This document shows positions 5,532 through 23,907 of a DNA stretch of 64,000 bases, one piece after another. Positions within the stretch are counted from its first letter, which is position 1. The number at the start of each line of letters is the position of its first letter. The notes under the pieces were generated by a model. It was not told the origin of the DNA. It saw only the letters and a list, made by a program, of their open reading frames with translations, and made no database searches. Source of the DNA: Gammaproteobacteria bacterium (GTDB lineage: Bacteria; Pseudomonadota; Gammaproteobacteria; JAJPIJ01); NCBI GenBank assembly GCA_035501935.1, contig DATJVC010000025.1, forward strand, positions 8,905 through 72,904, given 5' to 3'. A program made the translations under genes and the position numbers.

Positions 5532-5793
5532 GGGCGCTCCGTGGAAATGGTCCGGGCTAAAATAGCAGAACCCCCCGACTAAATGAAAATTCCATGGAAT
5601 CGGCCAGTAACTGCGCCGCCGATGTACGCCACACCATCGAACGTCTGTGTCATTTGGAACATGCCAGCGGGTTGTAAAAGCAAAATTCTTCCCTTTCGCA
5701 GCGCTCTTCCGCGCTCGCAACTATCCGTGGGCGGCCCTCAAATTGTTGTGGAGAAACCTGACTCGATAGTGATGCTCCATAACGAGTTCATAA

Positions 5794-5807
5794 TTAACTC
5801 ATTGATT
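5794..5807 (-). promoter_or_regulatory. IHF-like site (AATCAATGAGTTAA) between an AT-rich upstream region and the sigma-54 promoter
   Basis: Matches WATCAANNNNTTR. About 35-45 nt upstream of the -24 element. Confidence 0.35.
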
Positions 5808-5837
5808 AATGATGTATTAATTAAAACAAAATCGAGT

Positions 5838-5853
5838 TGGCACGACTGTCGCT
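5838..5853 (+). promoter_or_regulatory. Sigma-54 (-24/-12) promoter TGGCACGactgTCGCT upstream of bdhA
   Basis: GG and GC dinucleotides at the canonical 10-nt spacing. One mismatch to TGGCACG-N4-TTGCW. About 45 nt upstream of the bdhA SD. Confidence 0.5.
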
Positions 5854-5910
5854 ATGTTGACCACAAGGAAGTTCTAACTTACGAGAAATTACGAGATGGG
5901 AGACAGCATC

Positions 5911-6708
5911 ATGGCCAACGGCAATTCACTTAAAGGTAAAACCGCCGTCATCACCGGTTCGACCAGCGGTATAGGTCTCGGCATCGCCCGGGGACTGGCG
6001 GAGGCCGGCGCCAATATCGTGCTCAATGGGTTTGGCGATCAGAACGAAATCGACAAAATCCAAAAAGAGCTGCGTTCCAAAACCGGCGTGCAGGTGCTCT
6101 ACAACGCGGCGGACATGAGCAAGCCGGCACAGATTACCGCCATGATCAACGATACTCACAAGGCCTGGGGCGGCGTGGATATCGTCGTGAATAACGCCGG
6201 TATACAGAAAGTGGCGCCGATCGAGGATTTTCCAGTGGACAAATGGGACGCGATCATCGCCATCAACCTTTCGTCGGCCTTTCACACCATTCGCACCGCC
6301 CTGCCGTTCATGAAAGCGAAACGCTGGGGGCGCATCATCAATATCGCCTCGGCCCACGCGCTGGTGGCCTCACCCTTCAAATCGGCCTATGTCGCCGCCA
6401 AGCACGGTGTCATCGGGCTGACCAAGACCGTGGCACTTGAAGCCGCGGAAGCAGGCATCACCTGCAACGCCATCTGTCCGGGCTACGTCTTCACGCCACT
6501 GGTGGAAGGTCAGATCAAGGACACCGCCAAGGCACGCGGCCTGACCGAAGAACAGGTCGTACGCGATGTGCTTCTGGCGGCGCAGTCGACCAAACAATTC
6601 GTAACCGTGGAACAGCTGGCGGCGTTTGCCGTGTTTCTGTGCACGGATTCCGCGGCCCAGATTACCGGGACCGCGTTACCTGTCGACGGCGGCTGGACCG
6701 CCCATTAA
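5911..6708 (+). CDS. bdhA: 3-hydroxybutyrate dehydrogenase (SDR)
   Basis: GKTAVITGSTSGIGLGIA...NAG..YVAAKHGV..CPGYV, closely matching BdhA enzymes. GGGAGA SD 7 nt upstream of the ATG at 5911. Confidence 0.85.
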   Translation: MANGNSLKGKTAVITGSTSGIGLGIARGLAEAGANIVLNGFGDQNEIDKIQKELRSKTGVQVLYNAADMSKPAQITAMINDTHKAWGGVDIVVNNAGIQKVAPIEDFPVDKWDAIIAINLSSAFHTIRTALPFMKAKRWGRIINIASAHALVASPFKSAYVAAKHGVIGLTKTVALEAAEAGITCNAICPGYVFTPLVEGQIKDTAKARGLTEEQVVRDVLLAAQSTKQFVTVEQLAAFAVFLCTDSAAQITGTALPVDGGWTAH

Positions 6709-6724
6709 TTTCAGGAGACCCATC

Positions 6725-7537
6725 ATGAACCGCGAACAAATACTGAAAACCCCCTCCATGCCGGCGGCCAGCCCCAGTTATCCCGCCGGCCCCTACCGCT
6801 TCATCAACCGGGAATACCTGATCGTGGCTTATCAATCCGATCCAGAGGCGATCCGCGCGGCGGTGCCCGAACCCCTGGCGCCGGATGGCAGTCAGACCGT
6901 GCTTTATGAGTTCATCCGCATGCCGGACAGTTCAGGGTTCGGCGATTACACGGAATCCGGCATCGTCATCCCCTGCACCTTCAAGGGCATGCCGGTGAAC
7001 TTCACCGCGCAGATGTACCTGGACTGCGAACCGCCGATCGCAGGGGGACGCGAAATCTGGGGGTTTCCGAAAAAACACGCCCAGCCGAAACTCACGGTGG
7101 CAAGCGACACCCTGACCGGCACGCTCGAATACGCCGGCCAGATGGTGGCAATGGCCACCATGGGGTACAAGCACGAAAACCTGCTGGACGGCCATGAACA
7201 AGCCCTGGCGGAGAAGATGGGCAAAACACAAATCAATCTCAAGATTATTCCAGACGTCGACGGCAAACCCGCCATCGCGCAACTGATCGCCTACAACCTG
7301 TCTGATGTGCAAATCAAGGGCGGTTGGGGCGGTCCGGCAAGATTGCATCTGGTGCCGCACGTCAACGCTCCGGTGGCCGATCTGCCGGTCAGACGGGTGT
7401 TGGGAGGGACGCATTTGATCGCCGATCTGACCCTGCCCTATGGCCGTGTGCTGCACGATTACCTGTTGCCGGCAAAAATTCAGGGGGTGTCCGCCATGGA
7501 AGTGGGAAATACACTGGAGATTTCCCGTGCGAAATAA
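6725..7537 (+). CDS. adc: Acetoacetate decarboxylase family protein
   Basis: Aligns to clostridial ADC (PAGPYRFINREYL..., YTESG..IP, FPKK lysine pair). GGAGA SD. Confidence 0.75.
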   Translation: MNREQILKTPSMPAASPSYPAGPYRFINREYLIVAYQSDPEAIRAAVPEPLAPDGSQTVLYEFIRMPDSSGFGDYTESGIVIPCTFKGMPVNFTAQMYLDCEPPIAGGREIWGFPKKHAQPKLTVASDTLTGTLEYAGQMVAMATMGYKHENLLDGHEQALAEKMGKTQINLKIIPDVDGKPAIAQLIAYNLSDVQIKGGWGGPARLHLVPHVNAPVADLPVRRVLGGTHLIADLTLPYGRVLHDYLLPAKIQGVSAMEVGNTLEISRAK

Positions 7538-8897
7538 CGCGGTTTCGGCCTCCCGGGCACACGTCGTCATCGTCGGCGGTGGATTCGCCGGCTTGTCGGC
7601 GGCTAGGGCCATGGCCAGGGCGCCGGTGCGGATCACCCTGATCGAGCGCCACAATTATCACTTGTTTCAGCCGCTGCTCTATCAGGTAGCCACCTCTGCA
7701 TTGACGCCCGCAGAGATCGCCTCTCCGGTGCGAGGCATCCTGCGCGACCAGAAAAACGCGACGGTATACATGGATACCGTGGTGGACGTCGATAAAACAC
7801 AGCGACGCGTCCGTACGCAGAGTGGACGCGATTTCGCCTATGACTATTTGATTCTCGCCACGGGTGCGCGCCACAGCTATTTCGGCAACGATCAGTGGGC
7901 AGCTCATGCGCCGGGGCTCAAGACGCTGGATGACGCGATGGAGGTGCGGCAGCGTATTCTGATCGCCTTCGAGCGCGCCGAGATGGAGACCATCGACCGG
8001 GAGCGCAGGCGTGCACACCTTACCTTCGTAATCGTTGGTGCCGGCCCCACGGGAGTGGAGATGGCCGGTGCCATCGCCGAACTGGCTCACTCCATCGCCC
8101 ATGATTTCCGCAATGTCTCCACGCGTTGCGCCCACGTCATACTGGTGGAGGCCGGCGACCGCGTCCTGCCGCAATTCCCGCCGTCACTTTCACAACGCGC
8201 CCAACGGGATCTCAAACGCATGGATGTGGACGTGCGCGTCAAAACGCGAGTGGAACAGATCGAACCTGGTCACGTGGTGCTGAACGGGGCCCGACTGGCG
8301 GCCGAGACGGTGATCTGGGCCGCCGGCGTCCAGGCCTCACCGGCCAGCCAGTGGTTGAAGGTCACCGCCGACCGTTCCAGCCGCGTGATCGTCAACGCGG
8401 ATCTTTCCGTACCTGGTCATGAGGATATCTTCGTGATCGGTGACACCGCAGCCTGTACGCCAGCGGGCGCTGAAAGGCCGTTGCCGGGTCTTGCGCCTGT
8501 GGCCAAACAGGAGGGCGAATTCGTCGGGCGTCTGATCGCCTCGCGCGTGACCGGCAGAAAAGCGCCACGCCCTTTCCATTATCTTGATTTCGGCACCATG
8601 GCCACCATCGGCAGGAACAGCGGGATCGCCAGTTTGCGCAGCATGCGCTTCAGCGGGTTCATCGGCTGGCTGCTGTGGGGCGCGGTGCACATTTATTTCT
8701 TGATCGATTTCCGCAGCCGGGTCATGGTGGCCCTGAACTGGTTGTGGGCGTATCTCACCTATCAACGCGGCTCCCGGCTCATCACGGGCCTGAACCTGGA
8801 AACACAAGGAGAACAACATGGCAACGAATCCCAAAATGGTAAATCTGGCACTGCAGGGTGGAGGGGCGCACGGAGCCTTCGCCTGGGGAGTGCTTGA
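7527..8897 (+). CDS. ndh: Type II NADH dehydrogenase (NDH-2) / FAD-dependent pyridine nucleotide-disulfide oxidoreductase
   Basis: Two GxGxxG Rossmann motifs (VVIVGGGFAGL, FVIVGAGPTGVE) and a C-terminal amphipathic tail. GTG start overlaps the adc stop. The 3-prime end overlaps the patatin start by 80 nt. Confidence 0.75.
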   Translation: MRNNAVSASRAHVVIVGGGFAGLSAARAMARAPVRITLIERHNYHLFQPLLYQVATSALTPAEIASPVRGILRDQKNATVYMDTVVDVDKTQRRVRTQSGRDFAYDYLILATGARHSYFGNDQWAAHAPGLKTLDDAMEVRQRILIAFERAEMETIDRERRRAHLTFVIVGAGPTGVEMAGAIAELAHSIAHDFRNVSTRCAHVILVEAGDRVLPQFPPSLSQRAQRDLKRMDVDVRVKTRVEQIEPGHVVLNGARLAAETVIWAAGVQASPASQWLKVTADRSSRVIVNADLSVPGHEDIFVIGDTAACTPAGAERPLPGLAPVAKQEGEFVGRLIASRVTGRKAPRPFHYLDFGTMATIGRNSGIASLRSMRFSGFIGWLLWGAVHIYFLIDFRSRVMVALNWLWAYLTYQRGSRLITGLNLETQGEQHGNESQNGKSGTAGWRGARSLRLGSA

Positions 8898-9978
8898 TAA
8901 GCTGCTTGAGGACGGCCGCGTCGACATCGAGGGCTTGAGCGCGGCCAGCGCCGGCGCGATGAATGCCTCGGTGTACGCCTTTGGCAAGATGACCGGCGGC
9001 ACTGATGGCGCGCGCCAGGCCCTGCATGACTTCTGGTCCAGGATCAGCGCGGCGGGCAGTCTCTACAGCCCCGCCAAACGTATGCCCTGGGAATTCTGGA
9101 GCATGGGCGGAAACAGCGACAATTCGCTGGGATACTGGCTGTTCGACAGCGTCACCCGCATGTTTTCGCCGTATCAATTGAATCCATTTGACATCAATCC
9201 ACTCCGTGATGTGCTGACCGCCTCGGTAGATTTCGAAAAACTGGTGATGTGCCAATGCACCAACCTGTTCATCAGCGCGACCAACGTCCGCACCGGCAAG
9301 GTGCGTGTATTCAAGAATGAGGAAATGTCCCTGGACGTGGTGATGGCCTCCGCCTGCCTGCCCTATCTGTTCAAGGCCGTGGAGATCGGCGGCGAGCATT
9401 ATTGGGACGGCGGCTACATGGGCAACCCGGCCCTGTTCCCGCTTTTTTATCACACCGGATCCAAGGACGTGATCATCCTGCATCTCAATCCCATCCACCG
9501 CGCGGATATTCCGAAGACCTCGGTGGATATCGCCGATCGCATCAATGAGATCTCGTTCAATTCCTCATTGCTGAAGGAATTGCGCGCGGTCGCTTTTGTC
9601 AACAAGCTGATCGACGAAGACTGGGTCAAGGAGGAATACCGTGCACGACTGAAACACGTGCTGGTGCATTCCATACGGGCGGACATGGCGTTGAGTGACC
9701 TGAATGTATCCAGCAAATTCAACTGCGACTGGGATTTCCTGACCAGTCTGCGCGACAAGGGCCGCGAGACCGCGGCCGAATGGCTTGATAAAAATTATCA
9801 ACACCTCGGCAAACAATCCACTGTCGATCTCAGGGCCGAATACCTGGGCCTGCACTCCGGTGGAATCGTGGACGAGCACCATCAAAAGTCACAACCCAAT
9901 CCGACCAACGGCCGCAAGGCAAAGACACGGTCGGCGCCGGCATCGGAAATAAAACCAACGATCAGGGCCATTTCGTGA
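8818..9978 (+). CDS. Patatin-like phospholipase
   Basis: GGGAHGAFAWG oxyanion motif and GASAGA nucleophile elbow. SD AGGAGA. Confidence 0.8.
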   Translation: MATNPKMVNLALQGGGAHGAFAWGVLDKLLEDGRVDIEGLSAASAGAMNASVYAFGKMTGGTDGARQALHDFWSRISAAGSLYSPAKRMPWEFWSMGGNSDNSLGYWLFDSVTRMFSPYQLNPFDINPLRDVLTASVDFEKLVMCQCTNLFISATNVRTGKVRVFKNEEMSLDVVMASACLPYLFKAVEIGGEHYWDGGYMGNPALFPLFYHTGSKDVIILHLNPIHRADIPKTSVDIADRINEISFNSSLLKELRAVAFVNKLIDEDWVKEEYRARLKHVLVHSIRADMALSDLNVSSKFNCDWDFLTSLRDKGRETAAEWLDKNYQHLGKQSTVDLRAEYLGLHSGGIVDEHHQKSQPNPTNGRKAKTRSAPASEIKPTIRAIS

Positions 9979-10033
9979 GTACCCTGCAGAATTAAAAAAA
10001 TCACGAACCAACATTCAACCTGGAGCAATCATC

Positions 10034-10483
10034 ATGCGTAACCTCATTAGATCACTTCTGAGCCTCACCCAATCATTGGACTGGCTGGCGCCGCTCATGG
10101 TGCGGCTGTTTTTCGGTTATTTCTGGCTGGAAACCGGTTGGGCCAAGCTGCACAACCTTGACGCAGCCACCGCCCGCTTCGTCGACTGGGGGATTCCGTT
10201 CCCATCCTTCAACGCACCGTTCTCGGCCGGCGCGGAATTCGTCTTCGGCGGACTGCTTATGGTGGGTTTGCTCACGCGATTCTCCTCAATCGCGCTGCTC
10301 ATCAACATGGTCGTCGCCATTGCCCTGGTGGTCATCAAGAATGTCGGTAGCTTCGACGACTTCGTCGAGTTGGATGAATTCACTTACATCCTGATTTTCT
10401 TCTGGCTTGCGATGGCCGGTCCCGGCAAAGCCAGCCTCGATGCGATATTCGGCCCCCGCTTGGGACTGGTGCCAGCCCGGTAG
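10034..10483 (+). CDS. DoxX family membrane protein
   Basis: Four-TM DoxX pattern. SD GGAG. Confidence 0.75.
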   Translation: MRNLIRSLLSLTQSLDWLAPLMVRLFFGYFWLETGWAKLHNLDAATARFVDWGIPFPSFNAPFSAGAEFVFGGLLMVGLLTRFSSIALLINMVVAIALVVIKNVGSFDDFVELDEFTYILIFFWLAMAGPGKASLDAIFGPRLGLVPAR

Positions 10484-10650
10484 CACCACGGCCTGGGCAC
10501 TCTCGGCGGGCTCCTCTCCGAAATCGGAGGACTGACGGGGACGCTAGGGATTCTCAGCCTCCCGGATGAAGGCGGAGGAGTCGCCCAACCCCTTGAATGC
10601 AGCCGACCGGCCGAGAGCTGACCGACGGCTGGCTGATAACCTTAGGCCGC

Positions 10651-11097
10651 ATGGAAAAGACCTCGCGGAGTTTCGAAGTAGAAACCGCGGCATTTCCGGC
10701 CGTCGATTCCTATCTGGCCGATAGGATCTATGAATTCAATGTCGAGGCGACGCAACTCCCAGACGCCAAAGAGTTCGCCCTCGTAGTCAGAGACAAATCG
10801 CAGGAGGTCATTGCAGGAATAAGCGGGCACAGATGGGGCGGAACGTGCCACATCAATCATCTATGGGTCCATCAAGAACATAGAAAGAGTGGCCTCGGCA
10901 CCGCACTCATAAAAGAAGCGGAAGCAGAAGCGCGAAAGGCCAAATGCAGCCAGGTCCTGCTTTCGAGCCATAGCTTTCAAGCGCCCGGCTTCTATGAAAA
11001 GATGGGTTATCACTTGGTGGCGGTAATCACGGACTATCCCAACGGGCATTCGAATCAGCACTTCATGAAGATCCTTTATACCTCCGATGCCGCCTGA
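10651..11097 (+). CDS. GNAT family N-acetyltransferase. Start uncertain; the alternative is 10597.
   Basis: Acetyl-CoA binding motif VHQEHRKSGLGTALI. Confidence 0.6.
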   Translation: MEKTSRSFEVETAAFPAVDSYLADRIYEFNVEATQLPDAKEFALVVRDKSQEVIAGISGHRWGGTCHINHLWVHQEHRKSGLGTALIKEAEAEARKAKCSQVLLSSHSFQAPGFYEKMGYHLVAVITDYPNGHSNQHFMKILYTSDAA

Positions 11098-11109
11098 CGG
11101 CGCGTTAAA

Positions 11110-11946
11110 TCAGCCGATGTTTTCGAACCCCGGATAAAGGGTCATGCCGCCATCGACGTAGAGCGTGGTGCCGGTGACATAGTCGGCCTCATCGGAGACC
11201 AGCCATACCGCGGCCCTGGCGACATCAATGGTGGCGCCGAGACGGCCATAAGGAATCAGTTGCAGCAACTCCGCTTCCTTTTCCGGCGTGGGCAACGCGC
11301 CGCTGCCCGGCGTTTTGACTGCGCCCGGAGAAATGCTGTTGACACGGATCTTGTGTGGCGCCAGTTCCTGGGCCAACGTCTTCATCATCATTTGAACGCC
11401 ACCCTTGGAGGCGGCGAAGCACGCGTGGCCCGGCCATGGAATGACATCATGCACGGAGGATAAACATAGAATTTTGCCGGCCGAACGGGATAACTCCGGT
11501 ATCACGCCCTGCTTGATGTACTCGCGCGCTGCCATGCGTGCACATAGAAACTGACCGGTCAGGTTGACGCGCAGGATCTGATCCCAATCCTGCAGGGTCA
11601 TGTCCACCAGCGCGGCCTTCTTCTGCAATTCAGTGCCGTTCACGAGGATATCGATGCCGCCGTACGATTCCAGCACCTGACCGAACAGGGTCTGCAGCTG
11701 ATGCTCCTGGCTGACATCGGCCTGGACGGCGATGGCCTCGCCGCCGTCATCCTTGATTTTTTTGACCAGATATTGCGCTTCTTCCGGCCCGCGCTCGTAA
11801 TTGATCACCACTCGGGCGCCGGCAGCGGCCAGGGCTTCGGCGATGGCGGCACCGATGCCAAAGTTGGCGCCCGTCACCAAGGCTCGCTGGCCGACCAGCA
11901 CCCTAGATGGGGCCGATCCTGCCTTCATGCATACCGACAAATTCAT
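11110..11946 (-). CDS. SDR family oxidoreductase (glucose-1-dehydrogenase-like)
   Basis: TGANFGIG, NGT, S...Y..AASK motifs. SD GGGGAGA 6 nt before the ATG at 11946. Confidence 0.8.
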   Translation of the reverse strand: MNLSVCMKAGSAPSRVLVGQRALVTGANFGIGAAIAEALAAAGARVVINYERGPEEAQYLVKKIKDDGGEAIAVQADVSQEHQLQTLFGQVLESYGGIDILVNGTELQKKAALVDMTLQDWDQILRVNLTGQFLCARMAAREYIKQGVIPELSRSAGKILCLSSVHDVIPWPGHACFAASKGGVQMMMKTLAQELAPHKIRVNSISPGAVKTPGSGALPTPEKEAELLQLIPYGRLGATIDVARAAVWLVSDEADYVTGTTLYVDGGMTLYPGFENIG

Positions 11947-14317: not shown

Positions 14318-15148
14318 CTACTTGACGGGCAGTTTGCCGGCAAGCTGATCGATGGCGATTTCCAAATTATCCACCTTTTTCAGCAATTCGGTAATCTCCA
14401 GTTCCGCCTTGAGATTGACCTTGTAATCAAGTTCGCTGCGGATACGGTCCTTGGCGTCCGTGCGGTTCTGACTCATCATGATCACGGGCGCCTGTATCGC
14501 CGCCAGCATTGAGAGAAAAAGATTGAGCAGAATATAAGGATAAGGATCAAAGGCCTTCTGCTCCAGAAGAAATGAATTAATCAATGTCCAGACAAACAGA
14601 AATGCCGCGAACAGTCCGATAAACGTCCAACTGCCGCCGAATTGCGCCACCCTGTCGGCGATGCGATTGCCAAAAGTCTCCTTTTCCTCGATGACCTCAT
14701 TTGGATTGGGCGTGGTCCAGCGCCTGAGGAAATCGCCGGTTCGCCGGAAACGCCGCACCATCCCTTTGATGACGTCCTGGGCCATGTGCGGCCGCCGCAT
14801 CAGGAGTTCAAGGATCTGATCATGCCCCAGGGTGAATGCCTTGGTCGGCTCCGTGCTCGTAACAGTCGCTGAACGCGGGCCCCCGTCAAAAAGCGACATT
14901 TCACCGAAATAATCCCCGGGGCCCATGATGTCGATGGTGATTTTGTCCCCGTTTTCGTTGAGCAGGCTGACGGCCACCTGCCCGCTGTCTATGACATAAA
15001 GCCTGTCGCCCGTCTGACCCTCCCGGAAAATTGTCTGCCCCGCCCGGAATGATTCCTCGGTGAATATGCCGGCCAGCGCGGCCAATTCATCGTCGTCCAT
15101 GGTGGCAAATAATGGAATGCTCTTCAGTAATTCAATATTGATTGACAT
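14318..15148 (-). CDS. Cyclic-nucleotide-binding (CAP effector) domain fused to a DUF1003 membrane domain
   Basis: cNMP-binding motifs FGEMSLF...RSATV in the N-terminal half. C-terminal two-TM plus coiled-coil region typical of DUF1003. G-rich SD. Confidence 0.6.
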   Translation of the reverse strand: MSINIELLKSIPLFATMDDDELAALAGIFTEESFRAGQTIFREGQTGDRLYVIDSGQVAVSLLNENGDKITIDIMGPGDYFGEMSLFDGGPRSATVTSTEPTKAFTLGHDQILELLMRRPHMAQDVIKGMVRRFRRTGDFLRRWTTPNPNEVIEEKETFGNRIADRVAQFGGSWTFIGLFAAFLFVWTLINSFLLEQKAFDPYPYILLNLFLSMLAAIQAPVIMMSQNRTDAKDRIRSELDYKVNLKAELEITELLKKVDNLEIAIDQLAGKLPVK

Positions 15149-15277
15149 ACCCCCCCCTCGAAAAGATTAATTGCGATTATGCCCGTACACAAAAAATACA
15201 AATAATGTATCCGGGCTGAGATCGGAACAACTCCAGCGTATAGACGGCAAACGATTACCGGAGTTGCAGCGAGGACA

Positions 15278-16300
15278 TTAATCGCCGCTGGAGCCGTATT
15301 TCTCGAGATATTGCTGGGACAAACGCTGGGCTTCCGCCAGCTGGTCGGGCGGCAGCTGTTTGGCCAGGGCGTCGCGCTTCTCGCGGGCGACGTTCATGCC
15401 GCCGGCCACGCTGGCGTCAAACCAGGCATAGGCCTGCATGGGATCCTTGCCGACGCCAACCCCCTCCAGATACAAAAGGGCAAGATTGTATTGTGCGGCG
15501 TTGAATCCCTGCTCGGCGGCGCGGCGTATCCATTCCGATCCCTCCGCGGGATCTGCGGCAACACCGCGTCCAGCCACGTAGAGCATGCCGAGATTGAGTT
15601 GCGCGCGCCTGACGCCCTGCGCCGCGGATTTCTTGAGCCATTCGAAGGCCATGACGTCATCCTGCTTCAACTCACGGCCTTCCATGTAGTACACACCGAC
15701 GGTGTACTGGGCGTCGGCGTTGCCCTGATCGGCGGCGCGCAAAAACCAGGTGTTCGCCTCCACGGAGTCGGCCTTCACCCCGAGCCCTTTGGCATAAAGA
15801 ATCCCGAGATTGTACTGGGCGCTGCTCAGGTTCTGTGCCGCGGCCCTGGCAAACCACTCACGCGACTGCGGGTAGTCCTGCGCCACGCCTTCTCCGGTGA
15901 AATAGCGCACGCCGAGTTGAAACTGGGCCTCGCGATCGCCTTGCATGGCGGCTTTTTCAAACCACCGAACCGCCTCGTGTGCGCTTTTATCCACGCCATT
16001 GCCGCGCAGATAAGCCATGCCGAGATTATATTGGGCGCCTGCCAGTCCATGGTCCGCCGCAAGCTTGAACCAGCGCGCGGCCTGACCATAGTCCTTCTCC
16101 ACCCCCAAGCCCTGGTAGTGCATGACGCCAAGATTATTCTCGGCCACATGGTCACCTTGCGCGGCGGCCTCACGGAATTCCCGGAGTGCGGCGGCGTAGT
16201 CCTTGTTCGCCAGCGCCGCCCTGGCGGCGGTGACATCCGCGACCGCCAGCGCCGGCATCAACCAGAGCAGCGCCAATGCCATGCGTCGCGATTTATTCAC
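15278..16300 (-). CDS. Sel1-repeat (TPR-like) periplasmic protein
   Basis: Signal peptide plus eight or more Sel1 repeats (AQYNLGxxYxxGxGVxxD). Confidence 0.75.
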   Translation of the reverse strand: MNKSRRMALALLWLMPALAVADVTAARAALANKDYAAALREFREAAAQGDHVAENNLGVMHYQGLGVEKDYGQAARWFKLAADHGLAGAQYNLGMAYLRGNGVDKSAHEAVRWFEKAAMQGDREAQFQLGVRYFTGEGVAQDYPQSREWFARAAAQNLSSAQYNLGILYAKGLGVKADSVEANTWFLRAADQGNADAQYTVGVYYMEGRELKQDDVMAFEWLKKSAAQGVRRAQLNLGMLYVAGRGVAADPAEGSEWIRRAAEQGFNAAQYNLALLYLEGVGVGKDPMQAYAWFDASVAGGMNVAREKRDALAKQLPPDQLAEAQRLSQQYLEKYGSSGD

Positions 16301-16401
16301 GGCTCTTGAGGGAATTCAGGATAAATCACCCGCCGGACCACGGCCATTTGGGGGTTCTGCTTGCTGCCGGGCGAAAATCCGCTGCCTGCGGCAGAACAGC
16401 T

Positions 16402-16965
16402 TTACCAGCGGTAGCCGAAGCGAACCAGCTGGAAATTGATGCCGTTGTTGGGGTTACCAAGACCGGCGTTGGAGAGATGCTGATAGCGGTAATTGATCTC
16501 GTACTGGCCCCGATCGCCGAAGCGGATGCCGCCGCCCAGGGAATCGCCGAAGGAATAGTTGATGCCGAACCCGGCGCTGCCCAAGGCCGTCTCGCTGAAC
16601 AGGTGGGCGCCGATGGCGCCCTCAAGGAACGGCCGCATACCGAGCCAGCTGTCGTCGGTTTGTATGCGGAATACCGGCGTGATACCGAAATCAACGAGGG
16701 AAGTGTTGCCGCTTTTGCCGCCGTGGCGGGCGTCCCAGTAGCTTGCACTCAATTCCCACTGGCCGCCCAGATACCAGTCGTGAAACGGCAGCCATTTCAC
16801 GCCCCAATCCCACACCAGCGCACCACCGCCCCGCCAGGCATCACGGTTGGGATTGTCCTCGTCCGTATATCCGCCCTCGATGGCGAAGCCGTCGACCGCG
16901 TGCGCGCTCATGGGCGCCAGCAGGACCAGCAGCGCAGCAAGCAGGCTGCGAATACTCCACTTCAC
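16402..16965 (-). CDS. pagL: Lipid A 3-O-deacylase PagL-like outer-membrane protein
   Basis: Signal peptide. HLSNAG (His-x-Ser-Asn) catalytic motif near the C-terminus. Terminal aromatic residues RFGYRW. Confidence 0.5.
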   Translation of the reverse strand: MKWSIRSLLAALLVLLAPMSAHAVDGFAIEGGYTDEDNPNRDAWRGGGALVWDWGVKWLPFHDWYLGGQWELSASYWDARHGGKSGNTSLVDFGITPVFRIQTDDSWLGMRPFLEGAIGAHLFSETALGSAGFGINYSFGDSLGGGIRFGDRGQYEINYRYQHLSNAGLGNPNNGINFQLVRFGYRW

Positions 16966-17258
16966 AATGACCCCCTCGTATATCGTCCCTTTCCCCGGGG
17001 ACGTTATTGATTATTGGCTGCACAAACTACAAGAAAACGGGAACGCCGTAAAGCGACGGCCACTCTCAGGCCTGTGACCCGCCTCGGGCATTCCGTTTTT
17101 AAGAATTCATGGTAGCATTGCGCGTGTTTTTTCGGCCCGCTTTCACGCGGGGCGGGTCAAAGCGAAAAAAATCAGGTGAAACGTGCCACCCAGGGGATGA
17201 CAGGGGCCCCGCGAGAGATGGCCATCGGGGAATATCCAGCCCCTGGAGGAACCGCATC

Positions 17259-17588
17259 ATGATGAAAAAGCATTGGCTCATGCTGACAGGCTTGGGCATG
17301 GGTTGTATTGGCATGAACGCGGCGCCGGCCGCTGGTGACGCGGCGGCGGGCAAGCTTAAGGCCGAAACCTGCATGGGCTGTCATGCCGTGGCCACCTACA
17401 AGAACGTCTACCCCACCTACAACGTGCCCAAACTTGGGGGGCAGCACCCGGAATACATCGTTTCCGCGCTCAAGGCCTACAAGTCAGGGGACCGCGCCCA
17501 CCAGACCATGCATGCCAACGCCTCCAATTTAAGCGATCAGGACATGCAGGATATCGCCGCTTTCTTCGCCGCGCAGGGCGGCAAGTAG
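17259..17588 (+). CDS. Monoheme class I cytochrome c (c4/c553-like half)
   Basis: Signal peptide, a single CMGCH heme motif, a distal Met. SD GGAGGA. Confidence 0.75.
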   Translation: MMKKHWLMLTGLGMGCIGMNAAPAAGDAAAGKLKAETCMGCHAVATYKNVYPTYNVPKLGGQHPEYIVSALKAYKSGDRAHQTMHANASNLSDQDMQDIAAFFAAQGGK

Positions 17589-17623
17589 GCATTGGCCCCA
17601 CAGAATCCATGGAGAGAGTACAC

Positions 17624-17959
17624 ATGAAAACGTTGTTAATGATCACGAGCGCCATGATGCTGTGCCTGCTGTCATTGACTGCCCGGGCGGAGGGCGATTA
17701 CGCGGCGGGGCAGCAGAAGGCCAAGGAAATCTGTGCCGCCTGCCACAACGCCGACGGCAACAGCACCAACGCGATGTATCCCAAGCTGGCCGGCCAGTGG
17801 GAAAGCTACATCGTTCAGGCCCTGAAGGAATACAAGTCGGGCGAGCGCAAAAATCCGATCATGGGCCCGATGGCCGCCCCGCTCACGGAACAGGAAGTCG
17901 AGAACGCCGCCGTGTATTTCTCGCAGCAAAAACCCGCGGTGTTCGTCCTCCAGCGTTGA
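17624..17959 (+). CDS. Monoheme class I cytochrome c (second c4-like half)
   Basis: Signal peptide, CAACH motif, paralogous to the upstream gene. SD GGAGAG. Confidence 0.75.
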   Translation: MKTLLMITSAMMLCLLSLTARAEGDYAAGQQKAKEICAACHNADGNSTNAMYPKLAGQWESYIVQALKEYKSGERKNPIMGPMAAPLTEQEVENAAVYFSQQKPAVFVLQR

Positions 17960-17994
17960 ACCGAAGCAGTTTGATCCAGAAGCAACACCGATAC

Positions 17995-18022
17995 GGCCCG
18001 GATTTCCGGGCCGTCGTTTTTT
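17995..18022 (+). terminator. Rho-independent terminator after the cytochrome c pair
   Basis: cggcccgga/tccgggccg stem followed by TCGTTTTTTG. Confidence 0.6.
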
Positions 18023-18058
18023 GCATCACACTTTCTTATCGCCCATGATTAAGCAATC

Positions 18059-18559
18059 ATGGTACGTCCCTTTAAATTCCGGCTCTCTCAACTCCCCATG
18101 CTCGACGCCGAGATCGAAAACCTGAGCCAGCGCCGGCAGGCCCTGGAGGCAGAAACCCAAGGCAAGTGGCTCACCGAATTGACGGACACCGAGACCAAAC
18201 TCGCGGACTTGAACCAGGACCTCATCAAGGCCCAGAACCGCTACACCTTGCAACAACTGGCCGCCCCCGTAGCCGGCACCGTCCAGCAACTGGCCCTCCA
18301 CACGATCGGTGGCGTAGTCACCCCTGCCCAGGAACTCATGCGCATCGTTCCTGAAGAGGACAGTATCCAAATCGAGGCCTGGGTCGAGAACAAGGACATC
18401 GGCTTTGTCCATGACGGCCAGAACACTGAAATCAAGGTAGAGACCTTCCCGTATACCAAATATGGCACCCTCACCGGCCGGCTCATCAAAGTATCCACTG
18501 ATGCCATCACCGAAATGAAGGAACTTCAGGTCGATAAGGATCACCGAAATGAAAAATAA
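18059..18559 (+). pseudogene. hlyD: hlyD remnant: the central/C-terminal ~165 aa of a type I secretion membrane-fusion protein. It lacks about 300 N-terminal and about 60 C-terminal residues.
   Basis: Aligns to E. coli HlyD residues ~300-440 (APVAGTVQQLALHTIGGVVTPAQELM...NKDIGF...KVETFPYTKYG). No TM/N-domain upstream, since the cytochrome terminator abuts it. The ORF ends at a 14-bp duplicated junction. Confidence 0.6.
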
Positions 18560-19382
18560 TTTATCTCGGGTTCCGTTGCTTGCTTTCGTTTCCCCCCTTT
18601 TAGTTTCTATGGCGGTTTACGCAGATGATTATTTACTTGATCCAGCGCCTGTGTATTACCAAGGCACGGCGCATGTTGAGACTCCATACGAAAAGCCGAC
18701 CGACTCCGGTGTTTGTGAGCTTTATCTGGAGAATCTGCGATATTTCGCAAAACAAAATATACCCATGTCCTGCGATAGACCTATAGCGCCACATTTGAAG
18801 AAGAAAATCCATGATGTAGCGTGGGAGAACCTGGATCCAGCACGGTATCCAGATCTGTTTAATGCAGTAGTTGCCGCTACTTTCCCGCCTTCAGGCGGGG
18901 GCGTGAAGCGCTGGAGTGAGGAAGTAAAAAAAGGTGTTGCTGTATTCCGGCGAGCCAAATTGCAACTGAAAGGGTATCCAACTTTTATGGGCACTTCCGG
19001 TGTAGGTACATCGCCGCCTCCACGCCCGATCGCATTTAATATTGTGCAATTTGGCATCAACCATAATGATCCAAACAGCCCTGATCCAGTATGGCGCTGC
19101 TATCCAATTCGTGGAAAGAAAGAAGGGCACGAACCAACTGACCTTCGTTTCTTTATTGTTACTGAAGATCTGACGAAAATGTACGATCAACTACGCGACA
19201 TTAATACAGGCCACACGGGAGACTATATAAAAATTATCAACACTCATCCTTATGTTGAAAGTTCATATACTGACACAGCAAATATACAAGAAATACAGTT
19301 ATCCGAAATCCAGACTAAATTCCCAGTTCATCTCGAGCCGGTTTGCCTTTACCGCTTCGATTTCATAGACAAAGGGCGGTAA
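18549..19382 (+). CDS. Orphan secreted hypothetical protein encoded on low-GC (~45%) inserted DNA
   Basis: Sec signal peptide MKNNLSRVPLLAFVSPLLVSMAVYA. No recognisable domain. Sharp GC drop relative to the flanks. Confidence 0.55.
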   Translation: MKNNLSRVPLLAFVSPLLVSMAVYADDYLLDPAPVYYQGTAHVETPYEKPTDSGVCELYLENLRYFAKQNIPMSCDRPIAPHLKKKIHDVAWENLDPARYPDLFNAVVAATFPPSGGGVKRWSEEVKKGVAVFRRAKLQLKGYPTFMGTSGVGTSPPPRPIAFNIVQFGINHNDPNSPDPVWRCYPIRGKKEGHEPTDLRFFIVTEDLTKMYDQLRDINTGHTGDYIKIINTHPYVESSYTDTANIQEIQLSEIQTKFPVHLEPVCLYRFDFIDKGR

Positions 19383-19538
19383 CATTAAGGGACGTACCAC
19401 CATTGTTTTCGAGGATTGAGGCATTAAAGATGTTGGGTTTGCTTCGTTTATGTGAGGGGAACATTAAGGGACGTACCACTATTGTTTTCGAGGATTGAGG
19501 CATTAAAGATGCTGGGTTTGCTTCGTTTATGTGAGCGA
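19381..19538 (+). repeat. Two tandem copies of a 79-bp unit with 3-4 mismatches. Each encodes the mini-ORF MLGLLRLCE... behind a GAGG SD.
   Basis: aacattaagggacgtaccac[c/t]attgttttcgaggattgaggcattaaagatg[t/c]tgggtttgcttcgtttatgtgag repeated at 19381 and 19460. A hairpin GCTTCGTT...AACGAAGC forms at the 3-prime end of copy 2. Confidence 0.8.
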
Positions 19539-19557
19539 ACGAAGCTGCGCCCCCATT

Positions 19558-20622
19558 ATGAGCGCAACCTCTAATTCCACGCCGGCGCGAATGGGCTACC
19601 GCCTGCCGGCGGAATGGGAGCCGCATCAAGCAGTGTGGTTCTCCTGGCCGCACAATCGCGAGTCATGGCCCGGCAAGTTCGAGACCGTCGAGCCGGTGAT
19701 GACTCAGGCGGTGGCGGCGATCCAGCAGAGCGAGACCGTGCGCATCAACGTGCTCGACGCCGCGCATGAAGCTCATGTGCGTGGTGTACTGGCAGCACAT
19801 CGTGTCAGCACGAACAACCTCCTCTTCCACCACTTCCCCACCAATGACGCCTGGTGCCGGGATCATGGCGCAATTTTCGTCGTGCGCGAGCAGGCCGGAC
19901 GCCGCGAACTGGCGGCAACGCACTGGGACTACAACGCCTGGGGAGATAAATATCCACCCTTCGATCGCGATCAGGAGATTCCACGACGTATGGCCGAGGC
20001 GCTGGCTGTGCCCCGGTTTGAGGGCGGCATGGTGCTGGAAGGCGGCTCCATCGAAACCAACGGCGCCGGTACCCTGCTGACGACCGAACAATGCCTGCTC
20101 AACTCCAACCGCAATCCGGGGATGAGCCGCGCGGAGATAGAGCAGCGGCTGCGCGATTTTCTGGGCGTGCAGACCATTCTCTGGCTGGGCGAAGGCATCG
20201 TCGGCGACGACACCGATGGCCATATCGACGATCTCACCCGCTTCGTGGCGGAAGATACTGTGGTCACGGTCGTCGAAGATGACCCGACGGACGCCAATTA
20301 CGCCGTATTGCAGGACAATCTGCGGCGTCTAAAGACCATGCGACTGCCAGGTGGACGCTCGCTAAACATCATCAATCTCCCGATGCCGGAACCGGTGATT
20401 TACGACGGCCAGCGCCTGCCGGCGAGCTACGCCAATTTCTACACCGGCAACACCGTGGTGCTGACGCCGGTGTTCAACTGCGCGCAGGATGCGCGGGCGC
20501 TGTCTATACTTGAACAATGCTTCCCCGGGCGGCGCGTCGTGGGTATTGATTGCACCGATTTGGTGTGGGGGTTGGGGGCTTTCCATTGCCTGACCCAACA
20601 AGTCCCCGCCACAGGCCGCTGA
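19558..20622 (+). CDS. aguA: Agmatine deiminase
   Basis: RLPAEWEPH...WFSWPH N-terminus and porphyromonas-type peptidyl-arginine deiminase fold motifs. Start ambiguous among 19531, 19558 and 19591. Confidence 0.8.
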   Translation: MSATSNSTPARMGYRLPAEWEPHQAVWFSWPHNRESWPGKFETVEPVMTQAVAAIQQSETVRINVLDAAHEAHVRGVLAAHRVSTNNLLFHHFPTNDAWCRDHGAIFVVREQAGRRELAATHWDYNAWGDKYPPFDRDQEIPRRMAEALAVPRFEGGMVLEGGSIETNGAGTLLTTEQCLLNSNRNPGMSRAEIEQRLRDFLGVQTILWLGEGIVGDDTDGHIDDLTRFVAEDTVVTVVEDDPTDANYAVLQDNLRRLKTMRLPGGRSLNIINLPMPEPVIYDGQRLPASYANFYTGNTVVLTPVFNCAQDARALSILEQCFPGRRVVGIDCTDLVWGLGAFHCLTQQVPATGR

Positions 20623-20881
20623 AAATCTATTACGGAGCCCGTCTGCGTTGTTGCTGCTCGCTCGAAAGCTCGCCGTACTGCCTTTGTACTCTCCCGCTTT
20701 CTCGCTCTCGGCGCCTGGCAGCCGTGCTTCCTCATGACGATTTACATCTGCCTGTTAACGAATCTCAACTGCTCGGCATCAGATTCACACAAAAAACACT
20801 TGCTGTTGACGGCTATTTACCCTACATTTCGCGCAAAATTTCCTCATCACACAAAAAATATGGCCAACCACAGGAACGGGA

Positions 20882-21877
20882 ATGAAAAATACGGCAGCGG
20901 TCGCTGAATTCATCCGCCATCACTACCGTCATTTCAACGCCGCCGCCCTGATCGACGCCGCCAACGGCTACATCGACCTGCTTGAAGACAACGGCAAGAT
21001 GTTCATGACCCTGGCCGGCGCCATGAGCACCGCTGAACTTGGCTTGTCGCTGGCGGAGATGATCCGGCAGGACAAAGTCCATGCCATAACCTGCACGGGC
21101 GCCAACCTTGAGGAGGACCTCTTCAACCTCGTGGCGCACGATCACTACGTCCGCCTCCCCCGATACCGCGATCTCACTCCCGAAGACGAGGAGAAGCTGC
21201 TGCAGCGCCATTTAAACCGGGTCACGGATACCTGCATCCCCGAGGATGAAGCCATCCGGCGCCTTGAAAAGGCCGTTTTAAAGGAGTGGACTGCCGCCGA
21301 CAAAAAAGGCGGAAGTTACTTTCCCCACGAATTCCTGTACCGCGTCATCAAAAGCGGCGCATTGGAAAAGCATTATCAAATCGACCCCCACGACAGCTGG
21401 CTGGTGGCCGCCTGCGAGGCCGATCTGCCGCTATTCGTCCCTGGCTGGGAAGACTCCACGCTCGGCAACATCTACGCCAGCCACTGCGTCAGCGGCACCA
21501 TCAAAAATGTTCACACGGTGCGGTCCGGCATCGAATACATGGTGTCGCTGGCACGGTGGTATCAGGCGACCTGTCGCGAGCATCCCATCGGCTTCTTCCA
21601 GATCGGCGGCGGCATCGCCGGCGACTTCCCGATTTGCGTAGTCCCGATGCTGGAGCAGGATTTGCAGATCCGGGACATCCCGCGCTGGAGCTACTTCTGC
21701 CAGATCAGCGACTCGACCACCAGTTACGGCTCCTATTCCGGCGCCGTGCCAAATGAGAAGATCACCTGGGGTAAATTGTCGGTGAAAACGCCCAAATACA
21801 TCATCGAGTCGGACGCCACCATTGTGGCTCCGCTCATTTTTGCCTGCGTGCTGTCTCCCCCGGGCCGGAAGATTTAA
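20882..21877 (+). CDS. Deoxyhypusine synthase-like protein, a probable homospermidine synthase-type polyamine enzyme
   Basis: DHS-family NAD-binding motifs (TCTGANLEEDL, GGGIAGDF). Stop overlaps the speA start (TAATG). Confidence 0.7.
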   Translation: MKNTAAVAEFIRHHYRHFNAAALIDAANGYIDLLEDNGKMFMTLAGAMSTAELGLSLAEMIRQDKVHAITCTGANLEEDLFNLVAHDHYVRLPRYRDLTPEDEEKLLQRHLNRVTDTCIPEDEAIRRLEKAVLKEWTAADKKGGSYFPHEFLYRVIKSGALEKHYQIDPHDSWLVAACEADLPLFVPGWEDSTLGNIYASHCVSGTIKNVHTVRSGIEYMVSLARWYQATCREHPIGFFQIGGGIAGDFPICVVPMLEQDLQIRDIPRWSYFCQISDSTTSYGSYSGAVPNEKITWGKLSVKTPKYIIESDATIVAPLIFACVLSPPGRKI

Positions 21878-23907
21878 TGAGCACGCCGCAACCCCTGCCC
21901 TCGCCAGCGGCTGCCGAATCGCCGGGCTGGACCGCCCAGGACGCGGAGGATTTGTACCGCATGCGCCAATGGGGCGACGGTTTCTTCTTCGTCAATGAGC
22001 GCGGGCACGTGGCCGTGCACCCGCTGAGCGATCAGGAGCTGAGCATAGACATCGCCGACGTGGTGCAGGACCTGCGCAACCGCAAGGTGAAGTTTCCAAT
22101 CCTGCTGCGATTCCAGGACGTGCTGCAGGCGCGCGTCGTGCGTCTCAACACCGCCTTTCGCGAAGCCATCGAGGGGGCGGGCTACCAGAACCATTATCAA
22201 GGCGTCTATCCCATCAAGGTCAACCAGCTGCACGAAGTGGTCGAAGAAGTCGTGGAGGCCGGCAAGCCGTTCAAGATGGGTTTGGAATGCGGCTCCAAGG
22301 CGGAACTCATCGCTGCGCTGCCGCACATGATGGACGACGAGGCGCTGTTGATCTGCAACGGCTACAAGGACGCCGTCATGCTGCGTTTGATTCTGGCCGC
22401 ACAGCAGATCGGCAAGAACGTCATTCCGGTCATGGAGAAATACGGCGAATTCGAGCACTTGCTGCGGCTGGCCCGCGATCTGAATGTCACGCCGCGTTTC
22501 GGCGTGCGCGTGCGCCTGGGCACCAGCGGCGCCGGCAAATGGGCGGAGTCCGGCGGGGATCAGTCCAAATTCGGCATCTCCATACCGGAGCTGGTCAATC
22601 TCGTCAGCCATCTCAAGGCGGATGGACTGAACGAGTCGCTGGTGCTGCTGCATTTCCACCTCGGCAGCCAGATCGCCGACGTGCAAATCCTGAAAAAGGC
22701 AGTCAAGGAAATCGCGCAAATATACGTGCAACTGCTGAAACGCGGCATGCCGCTGAAATACGTCGACGTCGGCGGCGGCCTGGGCGTCAACTACGAGGCG
22801 GGCTACGGCGGCGAGGAAAACAGCATCAATTACAGTCTGCGCGAATACGCCAACGCCGTGGTGTATTCGATGAAGGAGGTCTGCGACGAGGAGCAGAGCC
22901 CGCATCCGATCCTGATCTCGGAGAGCGGACGCGCCATCACCGCGCATCATTCCGTGTTGATCGTCGAGGCCCTGGGCGCCTACCGCAAGGACACGGTGGA
23001 GGACAACTTCATGCCGGCGCCGGAACACAACATCGTGGTCCGGCAATTGTTTGACACCCTCGCCCGCGTGCGCCAGCTCGCCGCCAACAAGCGCCGCAAG
23101 AATCCGCCGCTGGCCGAGTTGATGGAGAACTATCACGACGCCGTCGAGAAACGCCAGGAGGCCGACACTCTTTTCAACCTCGGCTATCTGCCCATGGAGG
23201 AGAAGGCGGTTGCCGAACGGCTGTACTGGACCATCTGCCGGGATATCGACAGGCAGGTCAAGAAGGCGCCCAAACCGGAATTGGTGCCGGTCGAGCTGCG
23301 CGCACTGGATGATCACTTGGTCGATCAATTTCTGTGCGATTTTTCCGTGTTCCAATCCATCCTTGACCACTGGGCCATCGGCCAGCGTTTTCCCATCCTT
23401 CCCATCCGTGGCCTCGACTGCCGCCCCACCCGTCGCGCCGTGCTGGTCGACCTGACCTGCGATTCGGACGGCAAGGTTTCACATTACGTCTCCTCGAATA
23501 CGGACAAGGACTTTCTGGAACTGCACGACTTTAAAAATGACGACCCTTACGACCTGGGCTTCTTTTTGATGGGCGCCTACCAGGACATCATGGGTGACGC
23601 GCACAACCTGTTCGGCCGCGTCTCCGAGGCGCACATTTATGCCGATGCCGCCGAGCCGGGTGGCTATTACATCGAAAAGATCATCCCCGGCACCTCCGTG
23701 CAGGAAATGCTGGCGCTGGTGCAGTATTTCCCCAACGACCTGCAGCGGCGCATGAACGACCTTATCAAGCAAAAAATAGACGAGGGTCGCATCCGTCCCA
23801 AGGCCGGCGTGGATTTGCTGGATCAATACATGCAGTGTTTCGCGCAAAGCACCTACTACGAACCCGCCACCCGGGAAACCCCGCCGAACAACGGCAATTC
23901 CGCATGA
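21877..23907 (+). CDS. speA: Biosynthetic arginine decarboxylase
   Basis: Full-length match to SpeA with the PLP-binding region and an N-terminal extension, 676 aa. Confidence 0.9.
   Translation: MSTPQPLPSPAAAESPGWTAQDAEDLYRMRQWGDGFFFVNERGHVAVHPLSDQELSIDIADVVQDLRNRKVKFPILLRFQDVLQARVVRLNTAFREAIEGAGYQNHYQGVYPIKVNQLHEVVEEVVEAGKPFKMGLECGSKAELIAALPHMMDDEALLICNGYKDAVMLRLILAAQQIGKNVIPVMEKYGEFEHLLRLARDLNVTPRFGVRVRLGTSGAGKWAESGGDQSKFGISIPELVNLVSHLKADGLNESLVLLHFHLGSQIADVQILKKAVKEIAQIYVQLLKRGMPLKYVDVGGGLGVNYEAGYGGEENSINYSLREYANAVVYSMKEVCDEEQSPHPILISESGRAITAHHSVLIVEALGAYRKDTVEDNFMPAPEHNIVVRQLFDTLARVRQLAANKRRKNPPLAELMENYHDAVEKRQEADTLFNLGYLPMEEKAVAERLYWTICRDIDRQVKKAPKPELVPVELRALDDHLVDQFLCDFSVFQSILDHWAIGQRFPILPIRGLDCRPTRRAVLVDLTCDSDGKVSHYVSSNTDKDFLELHDFKNDDPYDLGFFLMGAYQDIMGDAHNLFGRVSEAHIYADAAEPGGYYIEKIIPGTSVQEMLALVQYFPNDLQRRMNDLIKQKIDEGRIRPKAGVDLLDQYMQCFAQSTYYEPATRETPPNNGNSA

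Follow-up and report, generated by a model that had tools for sequence, protein, structure and literature searches.

Peptidoglycan-hydrolase effectors accompanied by periplasmic immunity proteins are well documented for the type VI (T6SS) and type IV (T4SS) secretion systems. In contact-dependent inhibition (CDI) and Rhs systems, part of the conserved gene upstream is retained in orphan cdiA-CT/cdiI and Rhs-CT/immunity modules, and the substrates of type I secretion systems (T1SS) are marked by RTX repeats. Predicted immunity and orphan-immunity proteins against lysozyme-like T6SS effectors include signal-peptide proteins with an LprI domain (PMC9796082, PMC8867033), and immunity in the periplasm against a lysozyme-type T4SS effector that the bacterium itself makes has been reported (PMC10933484). 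Here, we describe an islet of ≈1.5 kb (18025–19535) in a 64-kb window, by which we mean the whole stretch of DNA that was analysed, taken from a 170-kb contig (DATJVC010000025.1) of a gammaproteobacterial metagenome-assembled genome (MAG). The islet contains an intact gene for a 277-residue protein, ORF277, preceded by a truncated piece of a gene for HlyD, the T1SS adaptor, which we denote hlyD′. On balance, we take ORF277 to be a solo gene, probably functional, for a periplasmic partner of the immunity type that pairs with RTX proteins carrying a lysozyme-like domain (RTX-lysozymes); it lies with a dead hlyD fragment in a repeat-bracketed islet.

ORF277 (18549–19382, forward strand) is the sole compositional outlier among the 71 open reading frames (ORFs) of the window. 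Its GC content is 0.448, and that of the two 79-bp repeats that follow it 0.424, compared to 0.595–0.604 in the flanks and 0.595 in the window as a whole. The GC content at third codon positions (GC3) is 0.40 in ORF277 and 0.61–0.82 in the other 70 ORFs, which places it 6.6 standard deviations below their mean. That ORF277 is carried on horizontally acquired low-GC DNA is therefore well supported, as had been proposed in an earlier interpretation made from the letters and ORF translations (the sequence-only reading). The sequence features described there are all present, and the interpretation drawn from them is partly supported. The ≈45% GC given there for ORF277 is also correct, while the ≈63% given for the flanks should be about 60%. 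The gene is preceded by an AAGGA Shine–Dalgarno sequence (18536–18540), with the ATG 8 nt after it. The predicted signal peptide (residues 1–25, nucleotides 18549–18623; MKNNLSRVPLLAFVSPLLVSMAVYA|DDY) has a charged n-region, a Kyte–Doolittle hydropathy of 2.0 over residues 8–24 and small residues at positions −3 and −1. There is no lipobox cysteine, the first cysteine being residue 56. ORF277 thus has the predicted features of a Sec-dependent exported protein processed by SPase I, in line with the Sec signal proposed previously, and the same N-terminal pattern is found across its family. An exact direct match of 17 nt between the 3′ part of ORF277 (19227–19243) and 9788–9804 (blastn-short E = 0.005) may be due to chance.

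No match to ORF277 was found in Pfam, NCBIfam, PHROG or PADLOC, consistent with the lack of a recognisable domain in the sequence-only reading. That reading called the protein an orphan; it is not a true ORFan. An early word-indexed search returned ORF277 alone, and a profile search of the same database with the family alignment reached only three proteins, but an exhaustive HMMER scan of 1.84 billion representatives yielded a family of at least 61 cluster representatives, 30 of them below 1e-30. The relatives are at most 47% identical and mostly 260–290 residues long. The family alignment displays a signal peptide, a mature N-terminus of the form ADDYxLDPxP and four near-invariant cysteines; ORF277 has exactly those four cysteines and every other residue conserved in the family. 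An N-terminal LprI lysozyme-inhibitor domain (PF07007) is present in six of the 33 family members examined, and is not found in ORF277 itself. Structure prediction from the single sequence gave a pLDDT of 31.6, and only the alignment-based AlphaFold model was used, for which the pLDDT was 89.3 and the pTM 0.85. This predicted fold had no match among PDB structures. The ORF277 family is uncharacterised, with a confidently predicted fold that is not seen among solved structures. The ORF277 product would be a Sec-exported, disulfide-containing protein, presumably located in the periplasm.

The genomic contexts of family genes were gathered by exact look-up and by a metagenome scan, and were compared by tblastn. 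In about ten distinct contexts (L002–5/L091, L009/10, L093, L097/98, L099, L103, L104, L105, L006 and L147), the family gene is followed on the same strand, after 2–30 nt, by a gene encoding a conserved N-terminal domain (N-domain) of ≈340 residues. The two genes are apparently co-transcribed, and their adjacency on one strand is the arrangement expected of a toxin–immunity pair. Usually, RTX repeats come after the N-domain (Pfam HemolysinCabind, E = 5e-41 to 2e-18), with 9–25 GGxGxD motifs per gene; partner proteins reach >2720 residues, and some of them include Ig-like He_PIG domains. In nearly all loci, the family gene and the lysozyme-like domain are GC-poor relative both to the flanks and to the RTX-repeat part. 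In the L002 locus (1439–1621; also in L003–L005 and L091), a conserved 60-residue ORF lies between an upstream RTX gene and the family gene, 13 nt from the latter, and matches no known family.

The N-domain carries the motif EGxxxxPYVDxxGxPTIGWGF, in which E26, D35 and T41 are invariant in all six partners compared and in the L006, L103 and L105 proteins. These residues align with the catalytic E11, D20 and T26 of T4 lysozyme. Like T4/GH24 lysozymes and phage endolysins, the N-domain keeps the spacing Glu-8aa-Asp-5aa-Thr within EGxxxxxYxDxxGxPTIGWG, and its best PDB, Pfam and PHROG matches are all lysozymes or endolysins. Pfam Phage_lysozyme was detected in four of the six N-domains, just below the cut-off (21.3 vs 22.3 bits), the 11 best PDB profile matches were all T4-type lysozymes over the catalytic region (E = 0.02–0.8), and the PHROG endolysin phrog_7 was matched with E = 3e-6. 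The N-domain differs from these enzymes in its length, which at ≈340 residues is twice that of T4 lysozyme, in its position at the head of RTX proteins of up to >2700 residues, and in scoring at or under the curated thresholds.

In L006, the partner is a stand-alone lysozyme-like protein of 147 residues without an RTX part; therefore, the coupling is to the lysozyme domain and not to the RTX part. In 7 of the ≈17 assessable contexts, the family gene stands alone among housekeeping genes, and truncated fragments of the lysozyme domain lie beside extra family copies in L006 and L147. The low-GC region L006:100–10900 (ENA ERZ26164947, contig_101) contains two distant ORF277-family copies (24–27% identity), one of them directly followed by the 147-residue protein, a second, degraded lysozyme-like fragment near 190–400, and five unannotated ORFs of ≈190 residues; it may be an array of alternative modules. 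The region L147:641–5806 (Logan SRR22388099) comprises, in order, a family member fused to LprI, an 872-residue lysozyme-RTX protein, a 374-residue LprI-containing protein that does not belong to the family, and a 101-residue ORF with a lysozyme-domain fragment, which looks like two successive immunity-like/toxin-like modules.

Among orphan immunity genes (T6SS Tsi/Tai-type, CDI cdiI and colicin immunity), the LprI-domain T6SS immunity proteins (PMC9796082, PMC8867033) are the closest to this arrangement. They too are small, periplasm-targeted proteins encoded beside a peptidoglycan-hydrolase effector, with solo copies scattered in chromosomes and a GC content below that of the flanks, and LprI itself occurs in some members of the ORF277 family. 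In contrast, the core domain of ORF277 has an uncharacterised fold that matches nothing in sequence or structure, the RTX repeats of the partner are a signature of T1SS and take the place of T6SS markers, and the family gene lies upstream, not downstream, of the effector-like gene. The signal peptide, the tight linkage to the lysozyme domain, the LprI fusions, the frequent solo copies and the foreign composition together make up a pattern that suggests immunity. The signal peptide is predicted to bring the family protein to the periplasm, where the peptidoglycan substrate of the partner is found, and there it would bind and neutralise the muramidase domain. The copy in the window would have lost, or never had, its toxin partner, leaving a solo ("orphan") immunity-like gene that could still protect against RTX-lysozymes from neighbours. 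In this scenario, hlyD′ and ORF277 would have arrived together as one repeat-bracketed piece.

The hlyD′ fragment (18059–18559, forward strand, 166 codons) is a non-functional pseudogene fragment. HlyD homology extends from ≈18080 to ≈18526 and was detected with Pfam HlyD_3 (E = 3.8e-16) and with the TIGR01843 type_I_hlyD model (E = 4.5e-49, model positions 216–360 of 422), where the score of 167.6 bits is under the curated cut-off of 208.65. The fragment aligns with residues 271–417 of the 478 in E. coli HlyD (E = 5.9e-31). It is thus of the length proposed in the sequence-only reading (≈165 residues), but corresponds to the third quarter of HlyD rather than its middle. Compared to HlyD/TIGR01843 adaptors (E. 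coli HlyD; PDB 8DCK, 5C21/5C22), hlyD′ is 55–60% identical to metagenomic HlyD proteins and retains the distal coiled coil together with half a lipoyl domain and the greater part of the β-barrel. It lacks ≈270 N-terminal residues, which include the N-terminal cytoplasmic segment, the transmembrane anchor and most of the coiled coil (α-hairpin), and the ≈60 residues of the native C-terminus. Its composition is host-like, with a GC content of 0.579 in the HlyD-homologous part and a GC3 of 0.72. Unlike in known systems, there is no ABC transporter or outer-membrane factor near hlyD′: no HlyB-type ABC transporter, second HlyD, RTX motif cluster or lysozyme-like N-domain was found in the 64 kb, and TolC, transposase and integrase were absent from the 20 larger ORFs (out of 71) covered by the Pfam scan, all of which are housekeeping genes. 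The absence of hlyB, tolC and an RTX substrate had already been noted from the sequence.

At the 3′ end of hlyD′, relatives of HlyD run on as ...DA(I/V)xDExxGLxY... to a conserved ...SLRER end, whereas the window reads DAITEMKELQVDKDHRNEK followed by a stop codon. Because the window departs from its relatives here, HlyD homology ends at, or a few codons past, the first of two copies of the 14-mer ATCACCGAAATGAA. This 14-mer occurs exactly twice in the window, as had been observed previously, against a chance expectation of 0.03 even with one mismatch, and the repeat at the joint between hlyD′ and ORF277 is non-random. The first copy (18506–18519, forward strand) lies in HlyD-homologous coding sequence (codons I150–K154), matching the family pattern DA(I/V)xDEK, and the second (18540–18553, forward strand) gives the spacer and, as was also noted before, the ATG (18549) of ORF277. 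Were there a single copy, the two ORFs (hlyD′ and ORF277) would form an in-frame fusion; the additional 34 nt break the frame and bring in the Shine–Dalgarno sequence. Two copies 20 nt apart are not the product of a single microhomology crossover, which would leave one copy.

A ≈30-nt inverted repeat, which the sequence-only reading does not mention, brackets hlyD′ and ORF277. Its local score of 18 exceeds the maximum of 15 in 2000 shuffles and of 12 in 1636 genomic windows. The left arm (18051–18080), with its core AAGGGACGTACCA on the minus strand, is low in GC, encodes the first 7–8 non-HlyD codons of the hlyD′ ORF and stops where HlyD homology starts. The right arm starts at the ORF277 stop codon and is present in both copies of the 79-bp tandem repeat (forward strand): copy 1 (19378–19456), which begins in the last ORF277 codons and the stop, holds an arm at 19379–19408, and copy 2 (19457–19535), with three mismatches to copy 1, holds at 19458–19487 the arm that resembles the left one more closely (80% over 30 nt). 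The exact 13-nt core has these three occurrences and is found nowhere else in the window. By our own reading, each site is an imperfect 27-nt palindrome, and these palindromes could be protein-binding sites. At the left border, a hairpin, CCATGATT-AAGC-AATCATGG (18044–18063, forward strand; −7.4 kcal/mol, z = −3.1, with 3 of 200 shuffles folding as well), overlaps the outer end of the left arm. At the right border, a second hairpin, GCTTCGTT...AACGAAGC (19520–19545, forward strand), is formed by the end of copy 2 with the first host-like bases. The low-GC block ends with copy 2, 22 nt before the aguA ATG, which confirms the position given for the tandem duplication in the sequence-only reading.

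Two geometrically equivalent readings of these borders remain: either the repeats are the ends of a transferred unit, or hlyD′-ORF277 was inserted into the centre of a pre-existing palindrome. Under either geometry, the 5′ truncation of hlyD is tied to the inverted repeat and not to low-GC DNA, which accounts for the 3′ truncation only; the proposal that the low-GC insertion both decapitated and truncated hlyD thus holds for the 3′ end alone. The arms have the terminal inverted repeats of an insertion sequence, miniature inverted-repeat transposable element or transposon (30 nt, 80% complementary, with a 13-nt exact core), but no transposase was seen among the 20 larger ORFs, and inspection by eye gave no direct repeat flanking the arms. 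Neither the remainder of the window nor 1.1 Mb of fetched loci contained the inverted-repeat motif. Scans of viral contigs for both repeat motifs gave counts at or below a rough chance estimate, and the three viral-contig matches to the 16-nt core of the inverted-repeat motif displayed no similarity past those 16 nt in the printed flanks. We also considered whether the repeat is a native aguA operator or a site linked to the family; it was seen neither in front of aguA in 80 loci nor in any of the family loci, and this was rejected. The 79-bp unit is not an integron attC site, as shuffled sequences fold better than it does on either strand (z = +1.5 and +1.1) and no integrase was present among the tested ORFs, nor is it a remnant of the 5′ end of a partner gene, since no protein similarity was seen by eye in any frame.

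The islet lies in core chromosome (FtsK, UvrC, SerRS, PntAB, EF-P and others), between the terminator of a cytochrome c gene pair (assigned with Pfam) and an operon of aguA, a deoxyhypusine-synthase-like gene and speA. The strong intrinsic terminator (17993–18024, forward strand), with a 9-bp, GC-rich stem (17993–18014) and a T-run tail, CGTTTTTTGC, marks the left-hand end of native host DNA. No RNA family from Rfam was matched in 15000–23000. On the right, aguA (agmatine deiminase; 19558–20622, forward strand) is the first gene of the three-gene cluster (19558–23907), whose gene order is conserved in nine further gammaproteobacterial MAGs (Woeseia, Chromatiales and Thioalkalivibrio-like), an arrangement that suggests a polyamine pathway unit. 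The aguA ATG follows the low-GC repeats by only 22 nt. The operon must therefore have its native promoter and leader either within the islet or on the far side of it, upstream, and the polyamine genes may now depend for their expression on foreign DNA, with the islet possibly supplying the promoter. A weak sigma-70-like site is present at 19270–19299. The Logan assembly of run SRR8881005, made with a separate assembler, is identical to the window from 3.5 kb upstream across the left border and the hlyD′/ORF277 joint; therefore, the inner junctions are not assembler-specific. The Logan contig ends within the 79-bp repeat, at the first base that differs between the copies, and the junction of the repeat with aguA thus rests on the MAG contig alone.

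The architecture of an hlyD 3′ fragment with low-GC cargo and terminal repeats recurs in two other genomes. In the first (L007; GCA_024235015.1, JACKNG010000002.1, a 716-kb contig of a gammaproteobacterial MAG), four paralogous membrane proteins of 234–293 residues without family match form an array (5500–11400). Two of them are preceded by an hlyD 3′ fragment (209 residues, 99% identical to each other), giving two tandem units, each with a different membrane protein; copies of a 35-nt direct repeat, at 7935, 9767 and 11296, delimit these units, and there is no ABC transporter nearby. The array has the look of orphan modules that stem from a T1SS locus. In the second (L112:6980–8510; JGI 3300037851, Ga0394877_0000627), a solo hlyD 3′ fragment of 206 residues with a host-like GC content of 0.65 is accompanied by low-GC (0.44–0.52) ORFs of 86 and 162 residues without family match, among mnmA, NUDIX, GST and purB genes. 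At the end of this unit is a tandem repeat of 27 nt, which has the 13-mer ATCGGGGACAGAC exactly in common with the repeat of L007. A similar 24-nt unit is found twice in tandem in an uninformative intergenic region of a phage contig (L143:7386–7430). The likeness of the window repeat to the L007 repeat is not significant (score 9, reached by 690 of 3000 shuffles), and an apparent shared 5′ breakpoint of solo hlyD fragments was a selection artefact, since the query starts there and the match lengths are flat over 180–291 residues. Several short "HlyD" database entries are halves of a frameshifted hlyD and not true fragments. In L008 (7160–8507) and L113 (6326–7744), full T1SS loci with a C39-peptidase ABC transporter and HlyD, a frameshift has led to hlyD being called as two genes.

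The window islet and its two counterparts resemble orphan cdiA-CT/cdiI and Rhs-CT modules in that a conserved gene related to secretion is represented by a truncated 3′ piece, with variable cargo of low GC content behind it. They differ in that the conserved piece in the window belongs to a transporter adaptor gene and not to a toxin gene, and recombination with a full-length hlyD of the same genome would be a supposition for the window islet. A wider and rather doubtful proposal is that such islets are a recurrent cassette by which T1SS-linked genes, above all immunity-like ones, are copied out, stockpiled and possibly swapped back via a resident hlyD, with the ORF277 family and the RTX-lysozymes forming a new T1SS-delivered peptidoglycan-hydrolase effector/immunity system.

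Several points weigh against the immunity reading of ORF277. Binding and neutralisation of the lysozyme-like domain are what we infer for the family protein, each lysozyme assignment of the partner N-domain is marginal when taken individually, and the signal peptide was assigned by eye and by hydropathy, not with a dedicated predictor. Immunity genes are more often downstream of the toxin gene, and the family gene is upstream. T1SS substrates normally bypass the periplasm of the producer; immunity would therefore be useful only where the toxin comes from neighbouring cells or where its N-terminus stalls or is retained, and a secreted RTX-lysozyme would still have to reach the periplasm of its target. 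As to the islet as a single unit, hlyD′ and ORF277 are unlike in GC3 (0.72 vs 0.40), and none of the ORF277-family loci examined has hlyD beside the family gene, so the adjacency of the two is not ancestral, and an ancestral arrangement was rejected on this ground; furthermore, no target-site duplication was found around the inverted-repeat arms. The upstream position and the tight coupling (2–30 nt) would suit a different role, in which the family protein is a periplasmic accessory factor of RTX-lysozymes rather than an inhibitor, for example a maturation factor, or a partner by which giant RTX adhesins have their N-terminal retention domain held or positioned at the cell wall, and the window copy is a functionless relic. 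Some partners are indeed giant (>2720 residues) with Ig-like domains, as in RTX adhesins, and the N-termini of LapA-type adhesins are known to remain in the periplasm. However, frequent solo copies and LprI fusions suit immunity better than an obligate accessory role, the pairing holds with the stand-alone lysozyme-like protein that has no RTX part, and a relic would not be expected to keep all conserved residues, the signal peptide and a Shine–Dalgarno sequence, as ORF277 does. We consider the accessory role unlikely.

Still less probable, in our view, is the scenario of the sequence-only reading, in which a native T1SS locus is decaying in place and a low-GC insertion entered hlyD by microhomology recombination, delivering a new secreted effector or exoprotein. 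The host-like composition of hlyD′ is what a native gene would have, the 14-nt repeat at the joint is non-random, and ORF277 is clearly foreign and has a signal peptide. Against this, the 64 kb include no hlyB, RTX gene, second piece of hlyD or other T1SS remnant; intact housekeeping genes lie on both sides, and an intact terminator stands 45 nt upstream of the fragment. The 5′ truncation coincides with an inverted-repeat arm whose partner follows ORF277, and not with low-GC DNA, and the single crossover that was proposed would have left one copy of the 14-mer. There was no HlyD within 6 kb in 80 aguA loci of other genomes, a comparison that is weak because the best AguA relative is only 66% identical, a distance at which the upstream genes are not conserved, and no close relative of the host was among those genomes. 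As to an effector, a Sec signal alone takes a protein to the periplasm and not outside the cell, and the family occupies the position of a partner or immunity gene immediately upstream of lysozyme-like RTX genes. A further alternative is an assembly artefact, a chimeric join or collapsed strain variant affecting the islet or its right junction with the duplication; the source of the window is a MAG, and its repeat-to-aguA junction is present in one assembly, the Logan contig halting in the 79-bp repeat. Such an artefact is very improbable: the second assembler gave an identical sequence from 3.5 kb upstream into the repeat, de Bruijn graph contigs normally break at an exact repeat (here 54 nt), and analogous islets are present in two other assemblies.

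If the immunity reading holds, a structurally new family of periplasmic proteins partners lysozyme-headed RTX proteins, probably as their immunity factor, and T1SS would deliver cell-wall-degrading effectors. No report of a T1SS peptidoglycan-hydrolase effector/immunity pair, or of RTX-lysozymes with such a partner, was found in the literature searched, and the family-level link between an uncharacterised fold and T1SS-type lysozyme proteins is new as far as that literature goes. The implications for the window are modest: one gene that is probably functional, on 1.5 kb of foreign DNA. Solo copies such as ORF277, if the reading is true, would mark past or ongoing exposure to RTX-lysozyme effectors in environmental communities.

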